Below are positions 3,110-60,000 of a stretch of 64,000 bases of DNA, one piece after another. Position 1 is the stretch's first letter. Every line of letters starts with the position of its first letter. Under the pieces are notes generated by a model, which did no database searches, was not told the DNA's origin, and saw only the letters and a list, made by a program, of their open reading frames with translations. Made by a program: the position numbers and the translations under genes. The DNA comes from Candidatus Omnitrophota bacterium (GTDB lineage: Bacteria > Omnitrophota > Gorgyraeia > Duberdicusellales > 4484-171): NCBI GenBank assembly GCA_021735655.1, contig JAIPGM010000009.1:1-64000 (forward strand), in the 5' to 3' direction.

Positions 3110-3820
3110 CTAAACTTCTATTGTCTGTCCTACCTTTACACCGACAAAATTATTTCCATATTCAGCTTTAAATATTTCTATCGCCTCATAACCGGTGCAA
3201 TGAGTAGGCCCAACTTTCTCGACTCCAATTTCTTTGAGCTTCTCGACTATGAGTTTCACTTCTCTTTTATCCTTATCGATCAAGTGGAATTCGCCCAAAA
3301 CAAGATAAATATGATCAGAAATATTCGCCTTCACGGTTTCAATAATCTTGATTATCCCCGGATGTGCGCAACCAGTCAAAATAGTTAAACCTTTAGATGT
3401 CTTTAAGGTAAGTAACTGCTCAGCTATTGGTTGACCACCATAACTGCCGATTATTTCACCCGTACTATAGATATTTTCGTTCAATTTAGTAAACTGCTTA
3501 ATATCTGCTAGCTTACCGCCATAAGATTTAACTGTTGTCTTAAACTTTTTGCTGAAAGAACGACAGACATAGACCTTTAATCCTGAGCGCTCCTCCAGTA
3601 TATCCTCTAATCCACCGGTATGATCCCAATGATCATGAGAAATAACTACTTTTTCTATTTTCGATAGCTTTACTTCCATAAATTCCAGGTTGTTGAATAA
3701 CGACCATCCCTTTTCACCAGTATCAAAAAGAATTTTTCCATCTACAAGATAAGCCACGCCCCAGCCGGTTAAAAAGTGCTCACCTAAAGAAAAACTATCA
3801 AAAAGTATTTTAACCTGCAT
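3110..3820 (-). CDS. MBL-fold metallo-hydrolase
   Basis: It carries the HxHxDH motif as VISHDHWDHTGG. Confidence 0.8.
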   Translation of the reverse strand: MQVKILFDSFSLGEHFLTGWGVAYLVDGKILFDTGEKGWSLFNNLEFMEVKLSKIEKVVISHDHWDHTGGLEDILEERSGLKVYVCRSFSKKFKTTVKSYGGKLADIKQFTKLNENIYSTGEIIGSYGGQPIAEQLLTLKTSKGLTILTGCAHPGIIKIIETVKANISDHIYLVLGEFHLIDKDKREVKLIVEKLKEIGVEKVGPTHCTGYEAIEIFKAEYGNNFVGVKVGQTIEV

Positions 3821-4700
3821 TTTTCTTTGAATTATATAACAATACTATATCGCCTAACCTACAGCCAGTATGCTCAGCTACTACCTGACACTTAACCATG
3901 AATAAAAAGAAAATTGGCCTTTTTTCTTGCGACAAAGTTTCAAAGTTACCCTGGCCCTTGCTGATTATCATGTCGGCGCTACGGTAAATCCGCTTAAATT
4001 CTTTTGAGCATAAAGGCAATATTGTTCCCGGGGCATCAGTCCCATTAGAAATTATCCGGCTCACCTTATCTAAACCGCAAACTCTGGCATCATCCAACAG
4101 GGCATCGTTTATAATCGGCTTTTCCTTTACCGCATAATAAATAATTTTATCAGGATAAAGTCTTTTTATCTCTTCAATCAAAATCCGGTCAAAAACTGTT
4201 TCGCCGGCATTATCAGCTAAATAAAGAATATTTTTAGTTTTTTTAAGGCACTGTTTAAACTCTCGATAATGAAATATTGACTGCTTATCGATGTATTTCT
4301 TTTCTTTAGCTAATATTTTTTTTAATTCTTGGTCAATATTCAAATTGTTTTTTACTCCAAAATCTATAATATTGCCGGCAATGGCCAGTTCCACTGACAC
4401 CAAAAGCCGATTCTTAGAAGAATTTACCTTATTCTTTAATTGCTTATAGAGCTTTAAAGCTAGGCGGTTGCTTGTAGCCTTTATTTTTTTATAAGGGTCA
4501 TTTCCCGGACTAAGCTTTTTTAACAAGTGATAACCCACACGAGCTATCTCCGGAGGCGTAGAATTAAGAGAAACTTCAGAGATTGTCTTTGCTAAGTGAT
4601 TAATAATCTGCTTCTGATGTTTCGGACTCAACCCAGCAATCCTGGCTCCTTCCAGAGCCTGCCGAAAAAAACAAGGTATACAGTCTAGATAAGTTTTCAT
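3810..4700 (-). CDS. DUF89-family protein (damage-control phosphatase ARMT1-like)
   Basis: The N-terminal MKTYLDCIPCF and the overall pattern resemble DUF89. This assignment is from memory of the family, not a search. Confidence 0.5.
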   Translation of the reverse strand: MKTYLDCIPCFFRQALEGARIAGLSPKHQKQIINHLAKTISEVSLNSTPPEIARVGYHLLKKLSPGNDPYKKIKATSNRLALKLYKQLKNKVNSSKNRLLVSVELAIAGNIIDFGVKNNLNIDQELKKILAKEKKYIDKQSIFHYREFKQCLKKTKNILYLADNAGETVFDRILIEEIKRLYPDKIIYYAVKEKPIINDALLDDARVCGLDKVSRIISNGTDAPGTILPLCSKEFKRIYRSADMIISKGQGNFETLSQEKRPIFFLFMVKCQVVAEHTGCRLGDIVLLYNSKKNAG

Positions 4701-5473
4701 TAAACTTTACCTCGCCTGGCTAAGGTATCTTTATTGCTAATCGGTTTAATATCTTTTTTTGACGCTTCATAGACCGATACCGCAGGCAACCCTTCAAAAT
4801 ATTTTTTTATTCCGGTTAATTCTCCTTTGGGTAACGGCTTCACCCTGCACAGCCTAAGAGGCGTATTAATTTGAACTTCCTCAGGATTAATTTCTCTTAT
4901 AATCTTTGCAATCTCTTTTGCATATTTTTTATTTTCTTTGATAAACATAACTTGCAATGCTAATTTCCCTTGATATATATTTTTAAATTTTTTTATCGCG
5001 AAAACAATATTTTTAAAATAAATGCTTTTTAACGGACGATTAATTACCTCAAAAACTTCCTGCGAACAAGCATCAAGCTTAACTGCAACTAAATCAGCGA
5101 GTAATAGGTCTTTCTGGACATCTTCTCTGTGTAATAGAGAAGAGTTAGTTAAAACTGCTATTTTGTTTTTTCGTATTCTTTTAACCGCCCTTATCGCATC
5201 TCCCAAATTCTCGGCGATAGTCGGCTCACCTGCTCCAGAAAAAGTAATATAATCTATTTTTACCGGCGGCAATGAGTCTAGCTCTTCAATAATCTTACTG
5301 ACCGGAACAAAAACCTTTCTTTCATCGCTAAAAAGCAGGGTTTTGCCCAATTGGCAATATATACAATCAAAACTACAGATTTTATTGCCTTGAGAAATTA
5401 GGTCTATCCCTAAAGAACTGCCCAACCTCCATGAAGGAACCGGGCCGTAAATATATTTAAATTCAGGCTTCAT
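4700..5473 (-). CDS. Radical SAM protein (CX3CX2C)
   Basis: It has the CSFDCIYC cluster motif and a YGPVPSWRLGSSLGI N-terminus typical of a radical SAM subfamily. Its start overlaps the DUF89 gene by 1 nt. Confidence 0.8.
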   Translation of the reverse strand: MKPEFKYIYGPVPSWRLGSSLGIDLISQGNKICSFDCIYCQLGKTLLFSDERKVFVPVSKIIEELDSLPPVKIDYITFSGAGEPTIAENLGDAIRAVKRIRKNKIAVLTNSSLLHREDVQKDLLLADLVAVKLDACSQEVFEVINRPLKSIYFKNIVFAIKKFKNIYQGKLALQVMFIKENKKYAKEIAKIIREINPEEVQINTPLRLCRVKPLPKGELTGIKKYFEGLPAVSVYEASKKDIKPISNKDTLARRGKV

Positions 5474-5865: not shown

Positions 5866-6261
5866 TTAAAAACGTAATAAATAACCGGCTATTGCTCGAT
5901 AAAGCGTACTTACTGCAAGTATTGAGCAGTGCAGATGGTCTTCGGGTAAACCTTTCAACCTTGTGATCACTTCTCCCGCAGAGACTGTCAACGCCTCGTT
6001 GATTGTTTTACCATAAGCCAGATTAGCGACCATTGCAGCACACGCCCTTGTTGCGCCGCAGCCATCTGTATAATATTTAATATCGGTAATCTTTCTATCT
6101 TCTATCACCAAATAAAACTCCATCGAATCCCCGCAAGGCCCTTTTAAGTATGACGAAGCTGTAGGATCGCTCATTCTGCCAAAAAACTTCGGATCATTTA
6201 AAAGACTTACAAACTCTTTAGGGTAGCCAGTAGTTTCTTCCTTGTTACTTGAATTTTTCAT
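5866..6261 (-). CDS. NifU/IscU N-terminal-domain-like Fe-S scaffold protein
   Basis: It has the GPCGDSMEFYL...DGCGATRACAAM cysteine pattern of IscU/NifU N-domains. Confidence 0.65.
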   Translation of the reverse strand: MKNSSNKEETTGYPKEFVSLLNDPKFFGRMSDPTASSYLKGPCGDSMEFYLVIEDRKITDIKYYTDGCGATRACAAMVANLAYGKTINEALTVSAGEVITRLKGLPEDHLHCSILAVSTLYRAIAGYLLRF

Positions 6262-6286
6262 ATAGATACCCTCCGAAATTATCTAT

Positions 6287-7276
6287 TTATGCCGACACGT
6301 ATTTATTTTTATCTTTAAAACTTGGCTCTCTTGGCCCGTCAACCGGCAGCTTAGACTCACTGATGAATGCCTTAAAACTTCCTAAACGAACAGATTGCCC
6401 GCTTGGCTTATTTGAAAAAAGGTATTGCTTCTTCGTGTCTAATTTTTTTATAAGTTCATCTTCAAAGGCATATGCCGAAACAAAATCCATTCCATTTTTC
6501 GTTAAAACAAAAACAGGTATTTGCCGAGAAAGTTGCATTATAGCCGCAGGGCCGATCATCTGTCTTATATCAAAAGAAGCGCAACTCCAGACTAAATCAG
6601 CGTAATCACGTATCATGTTAATTTTATCTTTAGCTATACCGGTCGTACATATTGCCAATGAAATTATTCTAATACCGCTTTCTTTTTCTAACGAACGTAA
6701 TGCTTTTAAATTCTTAGCTGAATGACCACATATAGTAACCGCAATAGTCTTATATCCTGCTTTTATCGCGCCTTCAACTCCCCGTACCTGATCAATAAGC
6801 GCGTTTTCAAATATCATCTGACAGCCAGCAGCCTTAAGTTTCTGAATAATCGCTTTAATCGGTGAGGTTAACAATAAACTATTCATTCGGGCGCCGATGC
6901 CTTGTACTATTTCCGGTTTATCGGTAACAACCGTCCCCGCCCCTTCGCAAACTACAACTGCCGAATCTATCGTACCTTTTTTTAACGCGAACATGAGCAT
7001 CTCTGAAGCGCCATATGGTATCGTAACATCATCATATGAAATTTTTCTCTCATCCGTAAAAAAACCGTAGTCTTTTATTTTTGACTCAATCACTTTTTTT
7101 ATAGAATTTTTAATGGCTTCCTTATTGTTGCCCCGAATACCACTAAAATCCTTATATAGGTGCTCGGCCAGTGGGCAAAAAGCAAGTGTTGGCTCGGTAA
7201 TATTAATGACCTTCCCAGAAGATACACTCACAAACGATGAAAAATATTTTAATATATGGATATCCCGTTTATCCAT
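6287..7276 (-). CDS. Conserved hypothetical protein, possibly DUF2099-like
   Basis: It is a long ORF with good coding periodicity. The family assignment is uncertain. Confidence 0.4.
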   Translation of the reverse strand: MDKRDIHILKYFSSFVSVSSGKVINITEPTLAFCPLAEHLYKDFSGIRGNNKEAIKNSIKKVIESKIKDYGFFTDERKISYDDVTIPYGASEMLMFALKKGTIDSAVVVCEGAGTVVTDKPEIVQGIGARMNSLLLTSPIKAIIQKLKAAGCQMIFENALIDQVRGVEGAIKAGYKTIAVTICGHSAKNLKALRSLEKESGIRIISLAICTTGIAKDKINMIRDYADLVWSCASFDIRQMIGPAAIMQLSRQIPVFVLTKNGMDFVSAYAFEDELIKKLDTKKQYLFSNKPSGQSVRLGSFKAFISESKLPVDGPREPSFKDKNKYVSA

Positions 7277-7288
7277 AAAATCCTTATT

Positions 7289-8140
7289 CTAAACTTGTAA
7301 TTTTTCCCAAATTTTGCGAATCTCACCCTTAACTACCGTATCCTTATATTCAATAATAGTCTTACCCTCAACCATAGCTTCTACCACTGTTTTATCAAAT
7401 CTGACTTTACCGGCTAAGGAAATTCCACTCTTTAGGCAATGTTCTTCTATTTTTTCTGACATATCCAAATTTAAATCATATTTATTAATTACTAACCGCG
7501 AAGGGACATTAAAATGTTTAGTTACTTCTATAACCCTTAACGCATCATGCAAACCGGATAAGGTGGGTTCAGTTACTACTACCGCGCAATCTATTCCAGA
7601 AAGCGAGGCGATAACCGGACATCCTATACCTGGGGCACCGTCAATGATAACCCAATCACAATTATTCTTCTCGGCCAGTTCTTTTGCCTGTTTTCTCACC
7701 AATGAGACAAGCTTGCCTGAATTCTCTTCAGCGATTCCAAGTTTAGCGTGCACCATCGGGCCAAAGCGAGTTTCGGAAATAAACCACTCTCCGGCAATAT
7801 TCTCTTCCATCTTAATAGCGCCAACCGGACAAACATGATAACAAAAAGTACATCCTTCGCAGGAAACCCCATCTACAGAAAAATCTTCACTTATAGCAGA
7901 GAAACGACAGACTTCAACACATTTGCCGCATTTAACACATTTTTCCTTATCAATAACGGCTGTTTTGCCACTTCTGAATTCATGTTTTTCTTTGACCGAC
8001 GGCTTCAGCAAAAGATGCAGATCCGCTGCGTCCACATCGCAGTCAGCCATAACTTTATTTTTCGCCAGTGCCGCGAAGGCTCCGGTAATTACAGTCTTGC
8101 CTGTCCCGCCTTTTCCACTTATTATGACTATTTGCTTCAT
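7289..8140 (-). CDS. MinD/ParA-family P-loop ATPase with an inserted 4Fe-4S ferredoxin domain (COG1149-like)
   Basis: It has the SGKGGTGKT deviant Walker A and two CxxCxxCxxxCP motifs (CVKCGKCVEVC, CEGCTFCYHVCP). I moved the start to MKQIVIIS, giving a 10-nt gap after the upstream stop. Confidence 0.8.
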   Translation of the reverse strand: MKQIVIISGKGGTGKTVITGAFAALAKNKVMADCDVDAADLHLLLKPSVKEKHEFRSGKTAVIDKEKCVKCGKCVEVCRFSAISEDFSVDGVSCEGCTFCYHVCPVGAIKMEENIAGEWFISETRFGPMVHAKLGIAEENSGKLVSLVRKQAKELAEKNNCDWVIIDGAPGIGCPVIASLSGIDCAVVVTEPTLSGLHDALRVIEVTKHFNVPSRLVINKYDLNLDMSEKIEEHCLKSGISLAGKVRFDKTVVEAMVEGKTIIEYKDTVVKGEIRKIWEKLQV

Positions 8141-8150
8141 GCAGTCTCTC

Positions 8151-9497
8151 TTACATTTTATCTGACGCGTTTTGAGCCGCCAAGACAACCGGATACATAG
8201 TTGGAGCAGATGTTAAATAGGGGTGAGTTGCCATTTGCAATGTTTCTAACTCGGTTATCGAGACTCTCTGTTGAATAGCCATACCAATAATGTTGATTAT
8301 TTCCCCCGCTGATATGCCTCCAGCTACCTGCCCACCCATAAAAATACCTGATTGTTTTGAAAAAATAAGTTTTACCCTTATTTTGTTTGCTCCGGGAAGG
8401 CTTCCGGGATGTTTATCAATACTCTCGGTATTTCCCGAAACAATCTCAAATCCCTCTTTCTTGGCACTCATTTCGGTAAGACCGGCTGAACCCAAAACCA
8501 AACCATCCACGTAAGTTGAGTAAATCGCTATTGTCCCCTTATTTTCACGCACAACCTTTAATTGGTATAGATTTGCTCCGGCAATCCTCGCCTCAGCAGT
8601 AGCAGTAGAAGCAAGCATAACTGGTGTGTCTTTTCTCGTGTAAAAATCTCGTTTTCCGGCACAATCACCCACAGCAAAGATATCGGAATCAGCAGTACGC
8701 ATATACTCATCCACCCATATACCCTGGCCTCTTCCTAAATCCAAACCTGCTTCGGTCGCTAAGGCTGTATTCGGACTAGCGCCTATCCCTAAAATAACGC
8801 TATCCACTTTAAGCTCTTTTCCGTTTTCAAACCGCACACCCTCTACTCTTTCCTTCCCTAAAAATTCAACCACTTTAGTGTCAGTTAAAATGGTGACTCC
8901 TCTTGACTTTAACTTCTCTTCAACCAATAAAGAAAATTCCTTATCAAAAGAATTTGCCAGTAAACACGGAAGAACCTCTGCTAAATATACATTAACACCG
9001 TTTATTTTTGAAATCTCATCAGCAAATTCAACGCCGATAAATCCTCCCCCCAGAACCAATACATCCTTAGCTTTTTTTAATTCCGCTACTGTTTTTTTTA
9101 AATAATCCATTTCTTTATATATCGGGTAAACTCCCTCTTTATCAATTCCAACTATTGAGGGCTTAATCGGCACCGAACCAGGGGCAAGGACCAATTTCTC
9201 ATATTCATATTCTTCGCCACTTTTAGCGGTTACTTTTTTTAGGCTACGGCTTATCTTTACCGCCTCATCAATAACGATTTCTATATTATTCTTCTTAAGA
9301 GCGTCAAGCCCCAACTTATTGTCATCGGGATTTTTAAGGCTCCAAAACATATAAGGAATACCACAAGGAATACAACCGTTAATCACATTTTTCATAACTA
9401 AGACATTTTTATCCGGATAATATCGCTTTGCCGTGATCGCACTCACCAACCCAGCTGGTCCACCGCCAACAATAAGAACATCCACTTTTTTAGCCAT
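8151..9497 (-). CDS. FAD-dependent pyridine nucleotide-disulfide oxidoreductase (NADH oxidase / CoA-disulfide reductase family)
   Basis: It has the VLIVGGGPAGL FAD motif, a single redox Cys in CIPCGIPY, and a second GGGFIGVE NAD motif. Confidence 0.85.
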   Translation of the reverse strand: MAKKVDVLIVGGGPAGLVSAITAKRYYPDKNVLVMKNVINGCIPCGIPYMFWSLKNPDDNKLGLDALKKNNIEIVIDEAVKISRSLKKVTAKSGEEYEYEKLVLAPGSVPIKPSIVGIDKEGVYPIYKEMDYLKKTVAELKKAKDVLVLGGGFIGVEFADEISKINGVNVYLAEVLPCLLANSFDKEFSLLVEEKLKSRGVTILTDTKVVEFLGKERVEGVRFENGKELKVDSVILGIGASPNTALATEAGLDLGRGQGIWVDEYMRTADSDIFAVGDCAGKRDFYTRKDTPVMLASTATAEARIAGANLYQLKVVRENKGTIAIYSTYVDGLVLGSAGLTEMSAKKEGFEIVSGNTESIDKHPGSLPGANKIRVKLIFSKQSGIFMGGQVAGGISAGEIINIIGMAIQQRVSITELETLQMATHPYLTSAPTMYPVVLAAQNASDKM

Positions 9498-9513
9498 AAA
9501 GTATACTTCTCCT

Positions 9514-9897
9514 TTATAAAGATTCTAGCATTACACAGAGTCCATAAATTACATCAATGTTATTGTCACGACAAAATTTTATCGCAGTTTCATTTTCAGC
9601 TCCCGGTTGAAGCCAAACTCTTCTTATAGATTTTTCCCGACATTCCTTTACTATCGCCTCGGTAACCGAAGGAGGGGTAACCAGATTAGCAACATCAATA
9701 TTAAAAGGAATATCGCTTATACTTTTATAACCTTTTACTCCGTCGACATCATTTAAACGGGGGTTAACCGGATATGCCTCATACCCCCTTTTTATCAAAG
9801 TCCTCAAAATTTTATACGCGTATTTAGTTTCATTTCTGAACGAGCCCACGACCGCAAATTTCTTCTGCCTTAAAAAATCCTTAACTAAGTTTTCCAT
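9514..9897 (-). CDS. CoA-binding domain protein (YccU/YneT-like)
   Basis: It has the KKFAVVGSFRNETKYAYKI pattern. The start was taken at MENLVKDF. Confidence 0.7.
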   Translation of the reverse strand: MENLVKDFLRQKKFAVVGSFRNETKYAYKILRTLIKRGYEAYPVNPRLNDVDGVKGYKSISDIPFNIDVANLVTPPSVTEAIVKECREKSIRRVWLQPGAENETAIKFCRDNNIDVIYGLCVMLESL

Positions 9898-10738
9898 CTT
9901 TAATCTTATTAAAAAGCTGCTCAAAATCTTTTCTGTATTCGGGAAAGGCTTTTACAATCGGCTCACCTTTTGAATAGGTAATTGCTATCTCCTTTTTAAA
10001 AGGTATCCGCATAAGAATAGGAACATTCTCCTTTTGGCAATACTCATCTGTTTTATTGTCCCCCAAATCCGAGCGGTTAATCACGACCCCAAAAGACACT
10101 TTCAGCTTTCGTAAAACTTCTACAGCCAGCATTAAATCGTTCAACCCAAACGGCGTTGGCTCAGTAACCAACAGGCAAAAATCACTTCTCTTTATAGTCT
10201 CAACCACCGGGCATGATGTACCAGGAGGAGCATCAATAATAACCGTACCTGTTGGATCAATATACTTCTTGATTTGCCTTATGACCGGCGGCACCATTGC
10301 CTCTCCGATATTTAGACGTCCATGTATAAACTGCATAGAACCAACCTCACCAATCTCGATTTCACCAATCTCTTTATTAACTTCCTTTATCGCCGCTTGG
10401 GGACAAAAGTAAGTACAGCTTCCGCAGCCATGGCAAAGGTTCGAAAAGACTAAAATGTTTCCCTTCCTCTCCTTGGATTCGGCTATCACCGCGATAGCAT
10501 TATAAGCGCATACCTGACGACACTTGCCGCAATAATTACACTTTGCTTGGTCAATTTCCGGAACCGGGATAAAAACTTTTTGGATACTGCTTATGGTCGG
10601 CTTCAAAAAAATATGTGCGTTGGGCTCTTCAGCGTCACAATCTAAAAACTGCACCCTCTCCTTTATAGAAAGTGCCAAATTGACCGCTATTGTAGTTTTT
10701 CCTGTCCCGCCTTTTCCGCTGGCAATTGATATAATCAT
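9881..10738 (-). CDS. MinD/ParA-family P-loop ATPase with an inserted 4Fe-4S ferredoxin domain (paralog of 7289..8140)
   Basis: It has SGKGGTGKT plus CNYCGKCRQVC and CHGCGSCTYFCP motifs. The start ATG was verified at 10738. Confidence 0.8.
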   Translation of the reverse strand: MIISIASGKGGTGKTTIAVNLALSIKERVQFLDCDAEEPNAHIFLKPTISSIQKVFIPVPEIDQAKCNYCGKCRQVCAYNAIAVIAESKERKGNILVFSNLCHGCGSCTYFCPQAAIKEVNKEIGEIEIGEVGSMQFIHGRLNIGEAMVPPVIRQIKKYIDPTGTVIIDAPPGTSCPVVETIKRSDFCLLVTEPTPFGLNDLMLAVEVLRKLKVSFGVVINRSDLGDNKTDEYCQKENVPILMRIPFKKEIAITYSKGEPIVKAFPEYRKDFEQLFNKIKDGKLS

Positions 10739-10742
10739 AAAT

Positions 10743-11354
10743 TTACATAAGTGAGTGGCAAGCTGTCACTATTTCCTGAAACTTACTGGAATACGTTTCT
10801 ATGCTAAAATCTTTTCTCTGTAAATATTTACCTATATCGTTTAAGTTTACCGAGCCTGCCTTATGAGTTCTCCCTTCGCTCTCATGAATCTTACCGATTA
10901 GTTTTAACCCCTCTTCGTTAAAATCACTCAAGATAAATTTACCTTCAAAACTAGTTACTCTGATAAGTTCATCCATTACTTTATAAGGATTTTCGAAATG
11001 ATGAATAGCGTTGATTACAAATACTGTATCAAAACTTGCATCTTTAAAGCTAAATTGTTCGGCATTTTCTATTTGAAAATTTACCAATTTTGCAAAACCA
11101 AAATATTTTATATTCCGTCTAGCATAATCTTGTTCTTGATACGAAACGTCAACACTAGTAAAATTATACCCTGCCTTAGCTAACTCAACAGTAAAATAAC
11201 CTTTTCCAGTCCCCACTTCTAGAATATCTCCATCGAAAGGGCATGATTTCTCTAAAATAAATTTACGCTCTTTTTCAATATCGTAACCAAAGCTTTTATA
11301 AAAATTTACCCTTTCTAAATATCGAGTATAATAATCTGATGTTTTATTTTCCAA
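10743..11354 (-). CDS. Class I SAM-dependent methyltransferase
   Basis: It has the ILEVGTGKGYF motif I. The start is TTG, verified at 11354, with SD AAGGGAGT. Confidence 0.75.
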   Translation of the reverse strand: MENKTSDYYTRYLERVNFYKSFGYDIEKERKFILEKSCPFDGDILEVGTGKGYFTVELAKAGYNFTSVDVSYQEQDYARRNIKYFGFAKLVNFQIENAEQFSFKDASFDTVFVINAIHHFENPYKVMDELIRVTSFEGKFILSDFNEEGLKLIGKIHESEGRTHKAGSVNLNDIGKYLQRKDFSIETYSSKFQEIVTACHSLM

Positions 11355-11357
11355 AAA

Positions 11358-11576
11358 CTACTCCCTTAACATTCGAGTCGCACATTTAGGACAATTTAAT
11401 GAATTACACGGAACGCTTGCCTGATGAGATAATTTCGCCCCACAGCTTGGACAAATACAATTTCCACTTGGGCCAGCACCAGGACTATTGCCACCATTGC
11501 GCCCCCTACCGCGCCCCATTCCTCTACCTGTCCCTGAACCTTGACCGAAAGGACCTGTCCCATCTCCTCTTGGCAT
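11358..11576 (-). CDS. Small Gly/Arg-rich protein with an MPRGDGTGP N-terminus and a C-terminal C4 zinc ribbon (DUF5320-like)
   Basis: It shares the MP(R/G)xDGTGP..G.G..TG N-terminus with ORF 12693..13043. It has CICPSCG...CPKC motifs. Upstream is a strong SD, AAGGAGGT. Confidence 0.55.
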   Translation of the reverse strand: MPRGDGTGPFGQGSGTGRGMGRGRGRNGGNSPGAGPSGNCICPSCGAKLSHQASVPCNSLNCPKCATRMLRE

Positions 11577-11657
11577 TTTATACCTCCTTAATTTTCGAAA
11601 TTTACTAAATTGATAAATTAACTCCTAAAATTCTTAAGGAAGGATCTTAATCTAACT

Positions 11658-11825
11658 TTATAACGAAATCGCTTCAACCGGGCATTGGCTTAAACAAGCT
11701 CCGCAATCTACACATTCTTGACTAATAACTGCTTTACCCTCTTCAATCTTAATCGCCTGTACTGGACACACATCAACACAAGCGCTACAACCAGTACATT
11801 TATTATTATCTACTTTAGCCGCCAT
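11658..11825 (-). CDS. 2x[4Fe-4S] ferredoxin
   Basis: It has two motifs: CTGCSACVDVCP and CVDCGACLSQCP. The start was moved to MAAKVD, preceded by a strong SD, AAGGAGGGGG. Confidence 0.8.
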   Translation of the reverse strand: MAAKVDNNKCTGCSACVDVCPVQAIKIEEGKAVISQECVDCGACLSQCPVEAISL

Positions 11826-11838
11826 GCCCCCTCCTTTA

Positions 11839-12204
11839 TCATTTATTACCAAAATGTGAATCTACACTTGGACCTTGGGTTAGTTTAAATTCCCCCCTTT
11901 TATACTTCGCTATCACTTCTTTAATTGTTCCCGATACACCAGCAATCACATCAAGGCCTGCTGCCTGTAAGGTCTGAAAAGCATTTGGTCCAACATTGCC
12001 GGTTAAAATTACTTTTACCTGCTTTTCGGCTGCAAGCTGACCCGATTGAATTCCAGCCCCACCCATACTATCTATATTAGGATTCTTAACTGACTCAAAA
12101 TCCTCTGATTCGGTATCAGCAATAATAAAATACTGACAACGACCAAAGCGAGGATCAACCGTCGAATCTAGGCTATCCCCTTGTGACGTAATACAAATCT
12201 TCAT
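11839..12204 (-). CDS. Dinitrogenase FeMo-cofactor biosynthesis-domain protein (NifX/NifB-C-terminal-like)
   Basis: It has MKICITSQGDSLDSTVDPRFGRCQYFII, the canonical start of this domain family. Upstream is SD AGGAGGT. Confidence 0.75.
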   Translation of the reverse strand: MKICITSQGDSLDSTVDPRFGRCQYFIIADTESEDFESVKNPNIDSMGGAGIQSGQLAAEKQVKVILTGNVGPNAFQTLQAAGLDVIAGVSGTIKEVIAKYKRGEFKLTQGPSVDSHFGNK

Positions 12205-12215
12205 AAATTTACCTC

Positions 12216-12617
12216 CTATTCATGCTCACAGTTATCTTCATCAGGATGATCACAAGCTGTCTTTTCTACGCCATATCCTTTTCCGGCCCCAGGCTGGCAA
12301 AGGCTTTCCCCTCCTTTAAGTGTTCCGGCCGTAGCTTGCTTAACTATTTCATCTACTTTTCCGCTAATCCCCATTATTGTTTTTATTCCACTTTCATCAA
12401 ATAACATTTGAGCCCTTTGCCCCATGCCACCAGCGACAATGGCGTTCACTCCTTTCTCCTTTAAAAACTGAGGTAAAAACCCCGGGTGATGCCCTGGGTT
12501 ATCAACCACCTGTTTCCTTATTAGTTTATCACCCTCAAGCTCTACAATAGTAAAGGAAGGACACCGGCCAAAATGAGCTGATACTAAATCACCATCTGTT
12601 GAAATTGCTACTTTCAA
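12216..12617 (-). CDS. Dinitrogenase FeMo-cofactor biosynthesis-domain protein (NifX/NifB-like), with an Asp/Cys/His-rich tail
   Basis: It has MKVAISTDGDLVSAHFGRCPSFTIV. The start is TTG, verified, with SD AGGGGGT. Confidence 0.75.
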   Translation of the reverse strand: MKVAISTDGDLVSAHFGRCPSFTIVELEGDKLIRKQVVDNPGHHPGFLPQFLKEKGVNAIVAGGMGQRAQMLFDESGIKTIMGISGKVDEIVKQATAGTLKGGESLCQPGAGKGYGVEKTACDHPDEDNCEHE

Positions 12618-12692
12618 AATTACCCCCTTATTAAAAATTTACCAAACAAGTAAGAATAAAGATATTTCCTTACCCCTACCTATCTCTTTACA

Positions 12693-13043
12693 CTATTTAT
12701 TACCTTCAAGTCCAGCATTAGATTCTAATTCCTTAATGCGCTGATTCATAGCTTCAATCTCATCCTGCATCAGCTTCGCTTCGGCTTTTAACTCAACTGC
12801 CTCCTGCTGTGGTGTAAGCCCGGGAACATACGGTAATCCAAAATAAGGATTTCCGTAAGCGTAACCGCCGGCTCTTCGCCATCCAAAGCCTCTTCCAAGA
12901 CCCCTTCCTAATCCACGACCTCTGCCAAAAAATCCACCTCTGACCGGACGCTGCGCACTTCCTGCCGGCAATGCACAATAGCCTCTTGCCCCACCGGTCA
13001 TCGAGCCTAACCCTTGAGGACCTGTTCCATCGAAACCTGGCAT
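12693..13043 (-). CDS. DUF5320-like protein: MPGFDGTGP N-terminus, Gly/Arg-rich middle, C-terminal coiled coil
   Basis: It has the shared N-terminal motif and SD GGAGGT. A Fur box lies immediately upstream. Confidence 0.6.
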   Translation of the reverse strand: MPGFDGTGPQGLGSMTGGARGYCALPAGSAQRPVRGGFFGRGRGLGRGLGRGFGWRRAGGYAYGNPYFGLPYVPGLTPQQEAVELKAEAKLMQDEIEAMNQRIKELESNAGLEGNK

Positions 13044-13063
13044 TTAAATCACCTCCATTTTTT

Positions 13064-13082
13064 GTTAATGATAATCATTTTC
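13064..13082 (-). promoter_or_regulatory. Fur box: 17 of 19 matches to GATAATGATAATCATTATC
   Basis: The plus strand reads GTTAATGATAATCATTTTC. It lies 20-40 nt upstream of the start of 12693..13043 and directly downstream of the fur stop. Confidence 0.6.
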
Positions 13083-13101
13083 ATTAATATTTTAAAAAAA
13101 A

Positions 13102-13584
13102 TTACTCCTCCTTTTTACCTTTACATTTATCACATAACCCATAAAATTGGATAACGTGATCGTCGATTTTAAAGTTATATTTTTTAGACAATCCTTTTTC
13201 TGTCTTCTGTAATAGTTCAATTTCATCTTTAATAAAATCAGTATAGTCAATAACCCTTCCACAATTCCTACATACTAAATGATGATGATGATGCCGTTGG
13301 CCTTTGGGGCCCTGGTTTAACTCATAGCGTGCTCTTCTATCTCCAAAATCTGATCTAATTACCAAGCCCATTTGAACAAGCAATTCAAGCGTACGATACA
13401 CAGTAGTTAAGCCAACATTGGGATAATCCTTATGAACCTTTATATATACATCCTCAGCACTAACATGTACAGAGGTTGCACCTAAAACGTCCAAAATTGC
13501 CCTTCTCGGAACAGTAAACCTATAACCACATCCTTTGAATTTGCCTTGCCACCAGCTAGGCCCTCTTTTGCATCTACCTTGCAC
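13102..13584 (-). CDS. fur: Fur-family metalloregulator (Fur/Zur/PerR)
   Basis: It has a winged-helix N-terminus (FTVPRRAILDVL), HHHHH...CRNCGRV and a C-terminal CDKC. The start is GTG with SD AAGGAGGA. Confidence 0.85.
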   Translation of the reverse strand: MQGRCKRGPSWWQGKFKGCGYRFTVPRRAILDVLGATSVHVSAEDVYIKVHKDYPNVGLTTVYRTLELLVQMGLVIRSDFGDRRARYELNQGPKGQRHHHHHLVCRNCGRVIDYTDFIKDEIELLQKTEKGLSKKYNFKIDDHVIQFYGLCDKCKGKKEE

Positions 13585-13598
13585 TACTCCTCCTTATT

Positions 13599-13646
13599 GA
13601 TAATGGTTTCCATTTCTAATATAACATTCATCTCAAAGCTTGTCAA
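13599..13646 (-). promoter_or_regulatory. Sigma-70-type promoter of fur (TTGACA-17-TATATT), followed by an AATGGAAACCATT palindrome (Fur-box-like auto-operator)
   Basis: The -35 is at 13641-13646 and the -10 at 13618-13623, with a 17-nt spacer. The palindrome at 13602-13614 lies between the -10 and the RBS. Confidence 0.55.
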
Positions 13647-54018: not shown

Positions 54019-57000
54019 TTACAAATCAGTTGCTTTTTTCTTCTTTTTCTCATCATCGTCTTTGCCGCCAAAATAAGGAGCTAGAGTCCCTTTGAGGTTA
54101 ATATTCTGCTCAATGAACTCATAAGCACCACTATCTAGGCTAATACCATCAAAGCCTGACTCATCGGTTACAGTTAACGGATGATAAGCATAAAAATCGG
54201 TGCTTCTAACTGGGGTAACTGTACTAAATCTATAGTTAGCCATCAATTCATAGTAAGTCCTAGAATCACGCAAGATACTTGCTAAAAATTGAGCACCGTC
54301 AAATTCTGGTAAGAAATCTGGCCAAATCTGCTGAGGTCCTAAGTTAGCTGCCGCAGGGCCAAACAAAGGTGAAGCACCTCTGGTGTCGGTATCATCATAA
54401 AAGATGTATCCCGGAGGTGTAACATTGGTTAAGTCAATATCTGGCGATGGAAAAACCCCGGTAACTGCTGTAACCCCAGGTCTAACTATACCTTCAATGG
54501 CTCCGCTTACCCCTAAGGTACCACTAGGACCAGCTAAGGTAAAACCAGGAGCAGCGCCACCTATCTCTAGGGTAAGCCCAGCAACTGGCGTAAAACCAGC
54601 AGGAACTGCCCATTTTGAAGGATCTAAATCCACTGCCTGAATATTTACATTTAAAGGATTATAAAAATTATCTGCATCTACTGGAACTCCTGCGTTACCA
54701 ATTCCAATTGTGCCTTCTGGTGTTGAGAAATAAGAATAACTTCCAGCAATTACGTTTGGCCCAGAAACCGGGTCAACTACGTAATGTGAAAATACATCTA
54801 TTCCACCATCGGTCGACCAAGGAGTACCAGTTAAGTCCATCGGAAGCGCTCTTGCGAAATCATTTACCGTGTCAGGACCAGTTGTTACGTCTGGTTGTAC
54901 TCCGCTAGGATCCCAGCCGGTTCCGGCATAAATCGAGCCAGTGCGGCTTTCTAAATAAACTCCACCGCGCGGTGCGATAACTGAGTTAACTGTCATGTCC
55001 CCACCACTACTAACATTAATTATCCCATTATTAGCAGCAACTGAAAGACCATAAAGAGTGCCTGCGTCCTCAGTCAAGGTACCTAGGGTAATGCTGTCTA
55101 ATTCATTAACGTAGATGTTTCCTACATCCCAAGAGTAAGCACTTAAATAATCAACTGCTGTCATAAATGGCGAAGCACTGGTACCGATATTGTGACGGGC
55201 CAATAACCCGGCAAAATCAGCGCTAACCAGCGAAGTAGCATCACCATAGATATTACCTTCCCAAGCATAGATATCTACTTCTGAGCTGCCTGTACCGCCA
55301 ACTGAAGCTGAAATAGAGCTATTAGCAAGGGTTACATCGCCGTTACCAGAGATTAAAGTTGCTCTGGCATCGCCGTCACCTATCATCTCAGCTGAAACAG
55401 TACTATCAGTAATATTTACACCCAAATTAGCAAATAATTCAACTAAAGCTGTATCACTACCACTTAAAGCTTGAGCTAAAATAGTGCTGCCATTAGTTAC
55501 GTTAATTTCACCATCTTGGGCGGTTACGCCTATTTCGGCATGACCTTCTCCATCTACGTCAGCAGTAATATCACTATTGCTAATATTAACATCGTTAAGG
55601 GTATTAATATCAACAAGGGCTATTCCTTCATTGCCTACTAAAGCTTCCAAGGTTGAATCGGTAATTGTTGTACTATTCCCAGCAACGCTAAGAATAGTTG
55701 CATCACCATCATTGCCAACTGAAGCTATTACTGTACTTTCTATTACCTCTATGTTGCCTTTGTCGGCAGCCAAGTTAACCGTAGCATCGCCATCATTTAC
55801 TACTGATGCAGCAAGTGTACTCGGATCAATGGTTATATCATTTGCGGCAAGAACGTTAATCGTAGCATCGCCATCATTACCAACCAAAGCTTCCAAGGTT
55901 GAATCAGTAATTGTAGTATTGTCGCCAGCTTCTAAGTTAACTGTTGCGTCACCGTCATTACCAACCAAAGCATATCCATAATCAGTGTAGGCTTCAACAT
56001 GACCAGTATCGACCTCGATATCATCTTCAGCTTCGATATTGACAGTGGCTTTGATGTCGCTGTCTTGGATTTCGACTCTTTCATCAGCTTCTAGATTGAT
56101 CTCAGATTTAACCGTACTAGAAGAGATCTTGACATCATCAGCTGATACTATATCGACCTGAGCTTCAATTGTCTCATCAGTTACTTCGATGTTTTCTCCA
56201 GCTTCAATGTCAATTGTTGATTTTACAGTGCTGTCTTGAATTATTAGGTCATTCCACCAGTTGCCTTCTTCAGGATCCCAACCACCGACTACTAGGTCGA
56301 TCTCGGATTTAACGGTGTCAACGTCATCGCCGTTGGTGATCTCAACGTCATCTTCAGCATCGATGTCAACTGTGGCTAATACATTACTGTTAACAATCTC
56401 CATCCTCTCATCAGCCTTAAGCTCGACTTCAGACTCGATATGGCTGTCGATTGACTTTACGTCATCTGAGGACTTAAGAGTTACTTCAGATTCGATGGTC
56501 TCACCAGTTACCTCTATAGTATCCTCAGCAGTTACATCGACTAAGGCCTTAACGGTTGATTCTTCAATTACCAGGTCGCTCCAGTTGCTGTCATTGTCAC
56601 CACTCCAGCCGCCGGCTACCAGATCTATTTCAGCTTTGATAGTTTCACCTTCAGCGTTAGTGATTTCAACGTCATCTTGAGCCTCAATCTCAATAGTAGC
56701 TAAGATATCGCTGCTTTCAATTTGCAGACGGTCTTGAGCTACTAGTTCAAGTTCGGCTTCTATAGTGCTATCAGTTATCTTTACATCGTCTGAAGACTTA
56801 AGAGTTACTTCAGATTCGATGGTCTCATCAGTTACTTCAATCTTGTCATCGGCAGTTACATCTACCAATGATTTAACTGTTGAATCTTCAATTACCAGGT
56901 CGCTCCAGTTGCTGTCATTATCACCACTCCAGCCGCCGGCTACCAGGTCTATTTCAGCTTTAACAGTAGTCTCACCTTCAGTGATCTCAACGTCATCTTC

Positions 57001-60000
57001 GGCGTCAATAGCTACAGTTGCTAGAATATCACTGTCAGTTATTTCTAAACGATCATCAGCTACTAGCTCGGTTTCAGCTTCGATAGTGCTTTCAGAGATC
57101 TTCACATCGTCGCCGGAAGCTATATTAACTGTTGATTCAACAGTCTCACCGGTTACTTCGATCTTGTCATCGGCAGTGATATCGACCAGTGATTTAACCA
57201 AACTGCTGTTGATTATTACATCATTCCACCAGTTACTTGCATTGTTTACCACGATATCAATCAATGAGCCGATAGTTTTACCGCCGTCATTGGTGATCTC
57301 AACGTCATCTTCAGCTTCGATATTGACAGTGGCTTTGATGTCGCTGTCTTGGATTTCGACTCTTTCATCAGCGCTAATCCTAACTTCGGCCTTAACATCA
57401 CTAGAAGCAATCTTTACGTCCTCATCGGCACTCAAGTTTACTTCTGCAGTTAAGTCTTCACCGTCTAAGTCGATATTAGAATCTTCCAATTCGACTTTAG
57501 CCAATACTGTACTGCGTGTTACCTCTATATTGTTGTCAGCTTGGGCATTAACCGTTGCTTGGCCTTTTCCTTCTAAAATCGCCTCGACTGTACTGTCCTC
57601 TATTTTAATGTCATGATCAGCTTGTAAGTTAACTCTTGATTCACCATCAAGATAGTTAATCGCTCTAACCAAACTGTCATTCTTTACTATTAAATCATTA
57701 CCAGCAGTAATATTTACACTGGCTACGCCGGTGTCAGAAGGTGGATCGATTGCTCTAACAGTGCTGTTATCCACAGTCACATTGCCTAAATCGGAATGGA
57801 TACCAATATAGGCGCCACCATCAGATGAAGGGGCAAGTTTAGAAAAAGCGCTTACTAAGCTATCCTTGATCACTATATCATTATCGGCAAGTAAGTTAAT
57901 CCAGGCTGATGCACCAAGGGCCCTGGCGATAACATCACTTCTTAATAAACCGATTCTATTAGCATCGAATCTAATTCTTGATAGTCCACCAAGATTTAAC
58001 TCATTAGTAACTACCCTTGAGTCAATCACCCTAATATCATCATTAGCATCGAAGAAAATCCTGGCTAAGTAATTACCGAACGAATTAGCTCTAACTACGC
58101 TACCGTCTCTTAGACCGATGTTTTTACCAGCATGAAACTCAACATTTGCCGGACCATTATTAATTGAGGTAGCTGCAACTCGTGAGTTTGTTAAACCGAT
58201 ATTATCCCCAGCATCTATTGTAATAATTGCTGAGGCTACTCCATCAAGCACCTGGCTCAACAAATCGCTGTTGTTCAGAAATACATCACTAGCAGCATCA
58301 ATATCTATCTCAGCATGGCCGGTGTTTGACACTATTGCTTTCACTTCACTGTCATCGATTGTAATATCGCCATTCTCGGTCGAAATATCTACATAAGCAT
58401 TACCGTTCAAAACTGATGCTGTAATGTAGCTTGTGTCTATGGCAATGTTATCACCGGCAGATAGATCAACTGAAGCATCGCCGTCACCCTCAACGGTTGC
58501 ACTTACAGTGCTGTCAGTGATGGTTAAATCTCCATTCTCAAGTGTACCCGATGTAGGAGGAACAGGTTCGTAAGGAGTGGTCCAATCACCAGCTACCATT
58601 TTAACCGTAGCATTACCGTTTCCGGTTACATTAGAAGAAACTGTACTATTAGCAACACTAATGTTCTCACCTTCAGCAAAAACCTCTGCATTACCAGTAC
58701 CGGTTTGAGCTGAAACTGTACTTGAATCGTTTATATTAAGATCAGCGCCATGGAAAGTGCTGTTATACAAATCTGGATCAGGAAAATTTATCATAATCCC
58801 ATCTGCATGCAATCCGGCGCTAAGTTCAACATTGGCATCGCCGGTTCCTTGAGTGATTGCGCTAACTGTGCTGTCAACAACATCGATCCCCTGCCAAGCA
58901 CGGACAGTTGTTGTAGTATCACCATTGCCAGCTGTGAAAGCTCTGACTATGCTGTTGTTTTGTATTGCGGTATTGCCAGAAGTTCCAAAAAAGACTGTTG
59001 AATCTCCGTCATTACCAACAGTGGCTTCGATTGTACTGTTATCAACTGTTTGAGAGGCAATCGGCCCATGAGTAAGCAGTGAAACTTCAGCATCACCGTC
59101 ATTGCCAATAGCCGCTGAAACAGTACTATCTAAAACTTGTAACGGCCCAGCCGATCTTAAAACAACACTAGCGGTGCCATTTAAAGCTGAGGCCGAAATC
59201 AAACTCGGGTCTATAGTCAGAGTTCCGTCGGCAATCATATTTCCAGCAGTTAAATCAACTGAAGCATTGCCAGTGCCTACGACAGTAGAAGTAATATCAC
59301 TATCGGTTACAGTAACATTTGTACCAGCATCTACATCAATCGAAGCATCGCCATCAAGGCCAATTCTAGCTAAGATATCGCTATCGACTATCGAAACTAG
59401 ACCATTAGTTGCATTTGCAATAACTGTTGCATCTCCACCGCCGCGGACTCTTGAACGAATTAGGCTATTGTCCCTAATGGAGATTCCTCTTCCCGGTGTT
59501 GTTAAGCTAACTGAAGCATTTCCATTGCCATTAACCCAAGCATCAATGACGCTTGAGTCGTACACACTGATTCCATTGTCAGCATCAGCAGTAATCAAAG
59601 CATTTCCATCGCCCGCACGAAAAGCCTCAATAGTTCCATCTACAAAAAGAGTTCCACTGTTAACGTCTAAATTAATAACTGCATCATCAGCTGGACCAGA
59701 TCCAGTTGCCAAAACTGAATAAGCATAAGTATCTCCACCGGTAATAATATCGACTACACTCCCTAGAGCCTGGATATCCCAAAGATTTACACCGTCTAAC
59801 TCGTTAATCCATACATCGCCACCTAAAGCAATCGCTTGCCAGATATCATCTACGTTAGTGTCAATATGATCACCTGGGACACCAATAGTACCAGCTGCAT
59901 TCATGTAAAGATTTGGAGCTGTTAAATTAATGCGATTACCATTAGTATCGAGAATATCGCCTGCAGAACTAGTTAAACGAATATTATCGCCAGCATTAAT

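Follow-up and report, generated by a model that had tools for sequence, protein, structure and literature searches.

The sufABCDSE operon for iron–sulfur (Fe–S) assembly in Escherichia coli is repressed by Fur. A locus of comparable design is described here from a Candidatus Omnitrophota bacterium (assembly GCA_021735655.1, contig JAIPGM010000009.1, positions 1–64,000; this 64-kb stretch as a whole is called the window below). In the window, a gene for a Fur-family regulator (fur) is followed by a DUF5320 gene and NifX-like genes, and a 19-mer between fur and the DUF5320 gene is a predicted Fur-type operator, whose role in connecting the adjacent fur to the DUF5320/NifX-like operon is supported by the comparisons given below. 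Judging from sequence comparison, it is likely that the metal-loaded protein encoded by the adjacent fur binds this operator (O2) together with a second one upstream of fur (O1), and that it represses both fur and the Fe–S operon. As with sufABCDSE, a Fur-family repressor would then gate an Fe–S biogenesis operon, with derepression at iron scarcity or upon Fe–S damage. Unlike sufABCDSE, the genes here are of the NifX/ORP-like, MinD-FeS, DUF5320 and IscU-like types, and the gene of the regulator stands first, in cis, with two operators. The operator is of the textbook Fur-family type; its interest comes from the proposed connection to an ORP/IssA-like Fe–S operon.

Three forms of the Fur box serve for comparison: the 19-bp box of E. 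coli (GATAATGATAATCATTATC), the 7-1-7 motif of Bacillus subtilis (TGATAATNATTATCA), and the dFUR-box (WTGAAAATNATTTTCAW). The last goes back to sequences preceding feoAB and fur genes of delta-proteobacteria, for which overlapping boxes shifted by 6 bp were also noted (Rodionov et al. 2004, PMC545781). The consensus of the lineage treated here, aTTAATGAAAATGATTtTCAtTAA, contains WTGAAAATNATTTTCAW exactly; the box precedes fur here too, and the overlap shifted by 6 bp is also found. Contrarily, feoAB does not occur within reach, and the targets observed are limited to fur and the Fe–S/ORP-like operon. The palindrome, moreover, is 23 bp long with TTAA flanks, and its hosts are Omnitrophota and other candidate phyla. 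The E. coli and B. subtilis boxes are likewise AT-rich and palindromic with conserved G/T bases, whereas the lineage consensus is centred at 13076, 3 nt away from the midpoint of the E. coli-style 19-mer (13073), and the half-site preferred here is TGAAAAT, not TGATAAT.

For the operon, the system to be compared is the ORP complex of Desulfovibrio vulgaris, which is anaerobe-specific and includes the MinD-like [4Fe-4S] proteins Orp3 and Orp4 and the Nitro_FeMo-Co protein Orp8 (PMC6345978). The complex also includes MrpORP, and the D. vulgaris orp operons are controlled by sigma-54, integration host factor, and OrpR (PMC6345978, PMC8359166, PMC3897727). The operon in the window resembles this system as an anaerobe-specific cluster for Fe–S proteins, with single-domain Nitro_FeMo-Co proteins and a pair of MinD-like ATPases that carry ferredoxin inserts. 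It differs in the absence of an MrpORP fusion, the MrpORP model hitting the Di-Nase part only (98.8 bits versus a cutoff of 450), and in the presence of additional DUF5320, methyltransferase, CoA-disulfide-reductase-like, DUF2099, and IscU-like genes. The cluster in the window contains no sigma-54 activator; a Fur-type regulator is found instead. In the searchable literature, we found no paper linking Fur to such a cluster or treating the function of DUF5320.

Predicted operators on both sides of fur

The features are collected in Table 1. All genes of the region lie on the minus strand. As given in the preliminary description, the gap between the fur stop codon and the DUF5320 start codon is 58 nt long (13044–13101) and holds the 19-mer; on the gene strand, the gap reads TTTTTTTT-AAAAT-ATTAATGAAAATGATTATCATTAA-CAAAAAAT-GGAGGTG-ATTTAA-ATG. 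The near-consensus match reported there is also borne out, since GTTAATGATAATCATTTTC differs from GATAATGATAATCATTATC at two positions. On both strands of the window, this is the sole place within three mismatches of GATAATGATAATCATTATC, while dinucleotide-preserving shuffles (n = 100) contain 0.05 such matches on average and none of them contains two or more.

The 19-mer is the core of the O2 palindrome. The arms (13065–13075 and 13077–13087) form an 11-1-11 inverted repeat with complementary bases at 10 of 11 positions (91%), which was recovered in the inverted-repeat scan at a maximum distance of 40 but not at 12. Such dyad symmetry suits a dimeric winged-helix repressor. All three published consensus forms, namely the E. 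coli 19-mer, the 7-1-7 motif, and the dFUR-box, are matched. The dFUR core ATGAAAATGATTATCAT at 13068–13084 agrees with the dFUR-box at 16 of 17 positions, and two 7-1-7 motifs overlap with an offset of 6 bp, one at 13063–13077 (two mismatches) and the other at 13069–13083 (one mismatch, 14/15). The conserved G/C bases of O2 at 13070 and 13082 are positions 2 and 14 of the 7-1-7 motif. Read along the gene strand, the palindrome is framed symmetrically, by the T8 run on its upstream side and by an A6 run (13057–13063) on its downstream side.

Table 1 Features of the fur–DUF5320 region and of the operon in the window
Feature	Position	Strand	Description
Fur promoter	13618–13646	−	TTGACA, 17 nt, TATATT, TG-extended; 11/12 to the sigma-70 consensus; abuts O1
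Pre-fur operator O1 (predicted)	13594–13617	−	AGAAATGGAAACCATTATCAATAA on the gene strand; dFUR core 13597–13613, three mismatches
Fur-family regulator gene	13102–13584	−	160 aa, GTG start; PF01475, E = 7.7e-33, 113.6 bits
T8 run	13094–13101	−	Immediately past the fur stop codon; 5 nt ahead of the 24-mer box
Post-fur operator O2 (predicted)	13065–13087	.	23-bp palindrome, centre 13076; TTAATGAAAAT-G-ATTATCATTAA on the gene strand
Flagged 19-mer	13064–13082	−	GTTAATGATAATCATTTTC (plus strand), GAAAATGATTATCATTAAC (gene strand); agrees with the E. coli Fur box at 17/19
Shine-Dalgarno sequence of the DUF5320 gene	13050–13056	−	GGAGGTG; 8 nt downstream of the palindrome; kept in related loci
DUF5320 gene	12693–13043	−	First gene after O2; PF17253, 78 bits
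Rest of the probable operon	5866–12617	−	Pfam/NCBIfam matches; genes tightly spaced or overlapping
Nitro_FeMo-Co (NifX/ORP-like) genes	12216–12617, 11839–12204	−	PF02579
Short DUF5320 gene with Zn-ribbon	11358–11576	−	N-terminus MPRGDGTGP
MinD-like ATPase genes with Fer4 insert	9881–10738, 7289–8188	−	CbiA/ParA + Fer4
CoA-disulfide-reductase-like flavoprotein gene	8151–9497	−	

A 24-mer matrix, trained on other loci only, was used for the window and for 90 related loci (10 from species-representative genomes and 80 from metagenomes, 421 kb in total). In the window, the best score (33.4 bits) falls on 13065–13088 and the second (26.3 bits) on 13594–13617, the O1 site, whereas the best score elsewhere is 9.7 bits. 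The best score per shuffled window (n = 100) is 9.8 bits on average and 18.6 bits at most. O1 and O2 are thus the only two sites in 64 kb above the range of the shuffles, and both flank fur; no further regulon member scoring above this range was found within the window. In the related loci, 62 sites of at least 17 bits lie just upstream of fur, 37 lie just after it, and 11 are found elsewhere, so that 99 of the 110 strong sites immediately precede or follow fur. Judging from the shuffles and from these counts, the motif does not occur at random frequency. G/C occupies positions 2 and 14 of the 7-1-7 motif in more than 90% of the sites in the matrix.

The position of the box behind fur is also conserved. 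Counting the window, 31 of the 53 loci with a DUF5320-type start after fur have a post-fur box of at least 18 bits, and its placement is fixed, with a run of seven or eight T, the box, and the DUF5320 Shine-Dalgarno sequence in this order. The same box occurs at the same place in at least 37 independent related loci of several candidate phyla, and the loci with the box span Omnitrophota, Coatesbacteria, and Auribacterota. Six further contexts of 20 kb each contain the same two sites in every case, plus one weak intragenic match.

The 11 sites away from fur mostly belong to units in which fur is the second gene, or to tandem boxes. A site of 20 bits inside feoB in locus L017 was judged to be a chance match. 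In locus L093 (8957–9843), the pre-fur box precedes an NIR_SIR/ferredoxin (sulfite-reductase-like) gene upstream of fur, and the boxed unit thus has fur in second place; the gene occupying the NIR_SIR/ferredoxin position in L015 is small and Cys-rich.

The palindrome could alternatively act as an RNA hairpin in the termination, stability, or translation of the DUF5320 mRNA, or be a chance AT-rich palindrome. Such a role would suit the near-perfect 11-1-11 repeat between the T8 and A6 runs and its distance of 8 nt from the Shine-Dalgarno sequence. However, the fold of the region (−6.4 kcal/mol) is no better than those of shuffled sequences (z = 0.52), the predicted fold does not use the palindrome, and an Rfam search of the region gave no family match. 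An RNA element was rejected on these grounds. The sequence itself, and not merely the pairing, is kept across phyla, and it recurs as O1 by the −10 hexamer of fur, near the transcription start region. Chance is excluded by the shuffles, the matrix scores, and the positional counts in related loci. A hairpin or a chance palindrome is therefore very improbable as the explanation of the site. An intrinsic terminator of fur was also rejected, since, on the transcribed strand, the T run comes ahead of the palindrome instead of behind it and a GC-rich hairpin is absent.

O1 was overlooked in the preliminary description because it agrees with the E. coli consensus at just 13 of 19 positions. Its position is occupied in 62 related loci, and the order TTGACA-N17-TATATT-box is kept in an alignment of 56 pre-fur regions. 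In the fur promoter, the −10 hexamer is directly adjoined by O1, the classic geometry of autoregulatory repression. This arrangement implies that fur is autoregulated. The downstream operon and fur probably form one unit, with fur at its head.

The promoter question at O2 should be noted separately. The preliminary description took TATTAAT (13083–13089 on the minus strand) as the likely −10 of the downstream operon and let the 19-mer overlap it. The former assignment is not supported, as TATTAAT has no −35 partner and is not kept as a promoter in related loci. The overlap stands in a modified form: the 19-mer merely abuts TATTAAT, whereas the full palindrome overlaps it by 5 nt. In the aligned post-fur gaps of the related loci, no conserved −35/−10 pair was found for O2. 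A TA..TT hexamer fused to the T run was considered as an alternative −10 and is likewise weakly supported. Among 31 aligned loci, the run of seven or eight T at −13 to −4 relative to the box is the sole other conserved feature of the gap. In loci with 1–35 nt between fur and the DUF5320 gene, the second box is absent, which fits transcription of the operon from the fur promoter there.

The regulator and the proposed mechanism

The regulator is 100% identical to a protein of a Candidatus Omnitrophica metagenome-assembled genome, and hundreds of homologs at 70–86% identity are found in Omnitrophota, Nitrospirota, and WOR-3. Its best match in NCBIfam is the Bacillus-type Fur model NF051892 (131 bits versus a cutoff of 220), and PRK09462 gives 94.6 bits (cutoff 146). 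The closest solved structures are those of iron Fur proteins.

Tyr63 and Arg64 of the regulator are invariant and align with Tyr56 and Arg57 of Fur, which read T and G bases in Fur–DNA crystal structures (PMC4506495). The conservation of the two residues fits the G, C, and T positions that are conserved at more than 90% in the matrix. The metal site is also complete: His40, Glu88, His99–102, Asp113, His143, and four Cys residues are conserved, and Cys105, Cys108, Cys151, and Cys154, which make up the Cys4 structural zinc site, are all invariant. Asp113 (codon 13246–13248 on the minus strand), located five residues past the first CxxC, is invariant in 40 homologs.

The N-terminus of the regulator should also be mentioned. 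Residues 1–20 (13525–13584 on the minus strand) belong to a conserved extension of about 20 aa with the consensus MPRxxGxGPPWWHGRFRGCGYR. In 18 of 120 homologs, the extension starts with MP[RG]G[DN]G[TMK]GP, which is the start peptide of the DUF5320 proteins of the operon; the start of the extension in the window has diverged (MQGRCKRGPSWW). Either a duplication that took in the operator, the ribosome-binding site, and the first codons or a shared function of the motif may lie behind the common start peptide.

The regulatory link between fur and the DUF5320/NifX-like operon proposed in the preliminary description is supported by the positional conservation of the box, the consensus matches, and the DNA-reading residues. 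We infer that the protein binds both operators and that repression is the direction of control. In the proposed mechanism, a dimer of the regulator with its corepressor metal, most likely Fe2+, would occupy O1 and O2, and Arg64 and Tyr63 would read the G and T bases that are conserved in each half-site. Occupation of O1 would block RNA polymerase at the fur promoter and thereby give autoregulation. Occupation of O2 would either block a weak internal promoter or form a roadblock to read-through from the fur promoter. With two operators, the 12 downstream genes would be held more tightly than fur itself. Loss of the metal, caused by iron limitation or possibly by oxidation of the metal site, would release the protein from the DNA, and the operon for Fe–S assembly and trafficking (DUF5320, NifX/ORP-like, MinD-FeS, ferredoxin, and IscU-like genes) would be derepressed. 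The physiological signal may be iron, oxidant, or both; metal-dependent repression is the best model.

Several points weigh against this mechanism. The seed consensus of the matrix included the window, the window sites being excluded from the final training, and the regulon scan covered about 20 kb per genome. No convincing sigma-70 promoter is found in the 58-nt gap, where the best scan match (9/12) falls within the box. The regulator reaches no NCBIfam equivalog cutoff, and the Glu typical of Fur is replaced by Asp113 at the ligand position equivalent to Asp104 of PerR. In addition, a related Omnitrophota genome (GCA_043817155.1, locus L092, 4612–7849) has another fur, whose 141-aa product carries Glu at this ligand position. 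This gene lies directly upstream of feoB, also precedes a FeoA/DtxR-C fusion, and is about 5 kb from the fur–DUF5320 unit; the fur–feoB unit has no box of the type in the window. Since a separate canonical fur thus stands by feoB without the box, iron may not be the sole signal.

These points lead to the question of whether the regulator is a PerR-like sensor of oxidant or redox state, or a dual sensor of iron and oxidant, rather than a classical iron Fur. In such a case, Fe2+-catalysed oxidation of His by H2O2 or O2 would free the DNA, and an operon for rebuilding and trafficking Fe–S clusters would be induced upon oxidative damage in a strict anaerobe. The ligand residues are informative here. 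The canonical Fur set of His, Glu, His, His, and Glu (the last being Glu108 in B. subtilis Fur) is not present in the regulator. As for the PerR ligands His37, Asp85, His91, His93, and Asp104, the equivalent of Asp104 is present as Asp113, and that of Asp85 is Glu88. The residue at the former position is Asp in PerR versus Glu in Fur and has been proposed to set accessibility and reactivity toward H2O2 (PMC4866751). The combination of Glu88 with an invariant Asp113 is the pattern of the peroxide-reactive PerR3 (BL00950) of Bacillus licheniformis, whose ligands are His, Glu, His, His, and Asp (PMC4866751). A division of labour with a feoB-linked paralog carrying the canonical Glu, as in L092, is plausible, and redox control through OrpR is described for the ORP-type operons of D. 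vulgaris (PMC8359166).

Features of the DNA and of the recognition helix, on the other hand, argue for a Fur-type protein. The PerR box is TTATAATNATTATAA, whereas in the operator G/C rather than T/A stands at positions 2 and 14 of the 7-1-7 motif. Arg64 in the recognition helix is of the Fur type, whereas an Asn in place of this Arg is a PerR-type feature. Unlike in PerR3, both the DNA-recognition residues and the operator are thus Fur-type, and the regulator as a whole is closer to iron Fur proteins, which provide its best family and structure matches; Glu88 is also Fur-like. The clostridial PerR model of NCBIfam does score 90.8 bits, but its curated cutoff of 180 is missed. Taken together, a PerR-like sensor is a serious but rather unlikely alternative to metal-dependent repression by a Fur-type regulator.

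The main binder of the box might instead be another, global Fur whose gene lies elsewhere in the genome, with the adjacent gene being a neighbour or a minor player. The core motif is indeed the general dFUR-box found upstream of feoAB in delta-proteobacteria (PMC545781), and a second Fur paralog is present in at least one related genome. However, in every context examined, this type of box flanks only the fur subfamily described here, and it is absent before the other fur, that of the fur–feoB unit in L092. That the subfamily, the autoregulatory box, and the operon occur so tightly together in different phyla argues for a cognate pair, and binding mainly by a global Fur is accordingly improbable. 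On the sequence evidence, the regulator is a distinct subfamily tied to the DUF5320/NifX-like operon and should not be read as a global iron regulator.

The operon downstream of O2

The genes after O2 encode, in order, DUF5320, two Nitro_FeMo-Co proteins, a 2×[4Fe-4S] ferredoxin, the short DUF5320 protein with a Zn-ribbon, an S-adenosylmethionine (SAM) methyltransferase, a MinD-Fer4 protein, a CoA_binding_2 protein, the CoA-disulfide-reductase-like protein, the second MinD-Fer4 protein, a DUF2099 protein, and, at the end of the operon, a NifU_N (IscU-like) protein. The window contains neither feoB nor a second fur. The order fur–DUF5320–NifX–NifX–(ferredoxin)–DUF5320–(methyltransferase)–MinD-FeS is found in 47 of the 58 loci whose Fur is at least 50% identical, and the core order of fur, DUF5320, NifX-like, and MinD/FeS genes is kept across several candidate phyla and also in annotated contexts.

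The first DUF5320 protein has a cationic N-terminal half rich in Gly, Arg, and aromatic residues and an acidic, coiled-coil-like C-terminus. Its residues 1–75 have an isoelectric point of 11.2 and comprise 24 Gly, 9 Arg/Lys, 11 aromatic residues, and one Cys, a composition nearly equal to that reported for the thioferrate-binding C-terminal tail of Pyrococcus furiosus IssA. NifX-like (IPR003731) genes follow the DUF5320 gene, and the CoA-disulfide-reductase-like gene recalls P. furiosus NSR. By analogy, the DUF5320 and NifX-like genes may form a "split IssA," that is, an Fe–S store.

In the 75-nt gap between the DUF5320 gene and the first NifX-like gene, an AT-rich, terminator-like stem-loop is found (12644–12685 on the minus strand; 19 pairs, 3 of them GC), followed by a T-rich tail. 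This stem-loop might attenuate transcription and raise the ratio of DUF5320 to the downstream genes.

We also considered, as a tentative and on balance unlikely reading, that the regulator is a dedicated hybrid sensor, combining Fur-type DNA reading, a PerR-like Asp, and the N-terminal extension, which in many homologs shares its initial MPRGDGTGP peptide with the DUF5320 proteins. Such a protein would sense Fe–S/thioferrate status or oxidant damage and feed back on an operon for storage and delivery of the split-IssA type, the parts of which would be the NifX-like domains, the separate cationic DUF5320 protein rich in Gly, Arg, and aromatic residues, the MinD-FeS carriers, and IscU.

Beyond a gap of 392 nt after the operon, Radical_SAM, ARMT1-like, and metallo-beta-lactamase-fold genes are located at 3110–5473 on the minus strand. 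These three families, together with Zn_ribbon_8 and Cation_efflux–Nitro_FeMo-Co fusions, accompany the cluster in five related loci (L091, L093, L094, L095, and L096). With the same families beside the cluster in relatives, the conserved island exceeds the operon described here. The last part of the window is taken up by one open reading frame of almost 10 kb (54019–63729 on the minus strand; 3236 aa, GTG start).

Significance for uncultured anaerobes

The cluster of DUF5320, NifX/ORP-like, and MinD-FeS genes is widespread in uncultured anaerobes, being found in Omnitrophota, Nitrospirota, WOR-3, Coatesbacteria, and Auribacterota. The operator provides a conserved and directly testable regulatory handle on this cluster. 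Should iron or oxidant status switch the operon by way of the regulator, a role of its products in the storage, trafficking, or repair of Fe–S clusters would be supported, and a simple in vitro assay with the protein and a 25-bp duplex would be available for organisms not amenable to cultivation. The significance would rise if the regulator is a hybrid Fur/PerR sensor, or if DUF5320 is a thioferrate-binding partner of NifX-like proteins. A hybrid sensor acting on a split IssA, if true, would be the first functional and regulatory assignment for DUF5320/ORP-like clusters in Omnitrophota and other uncultured anaerobic phyla.

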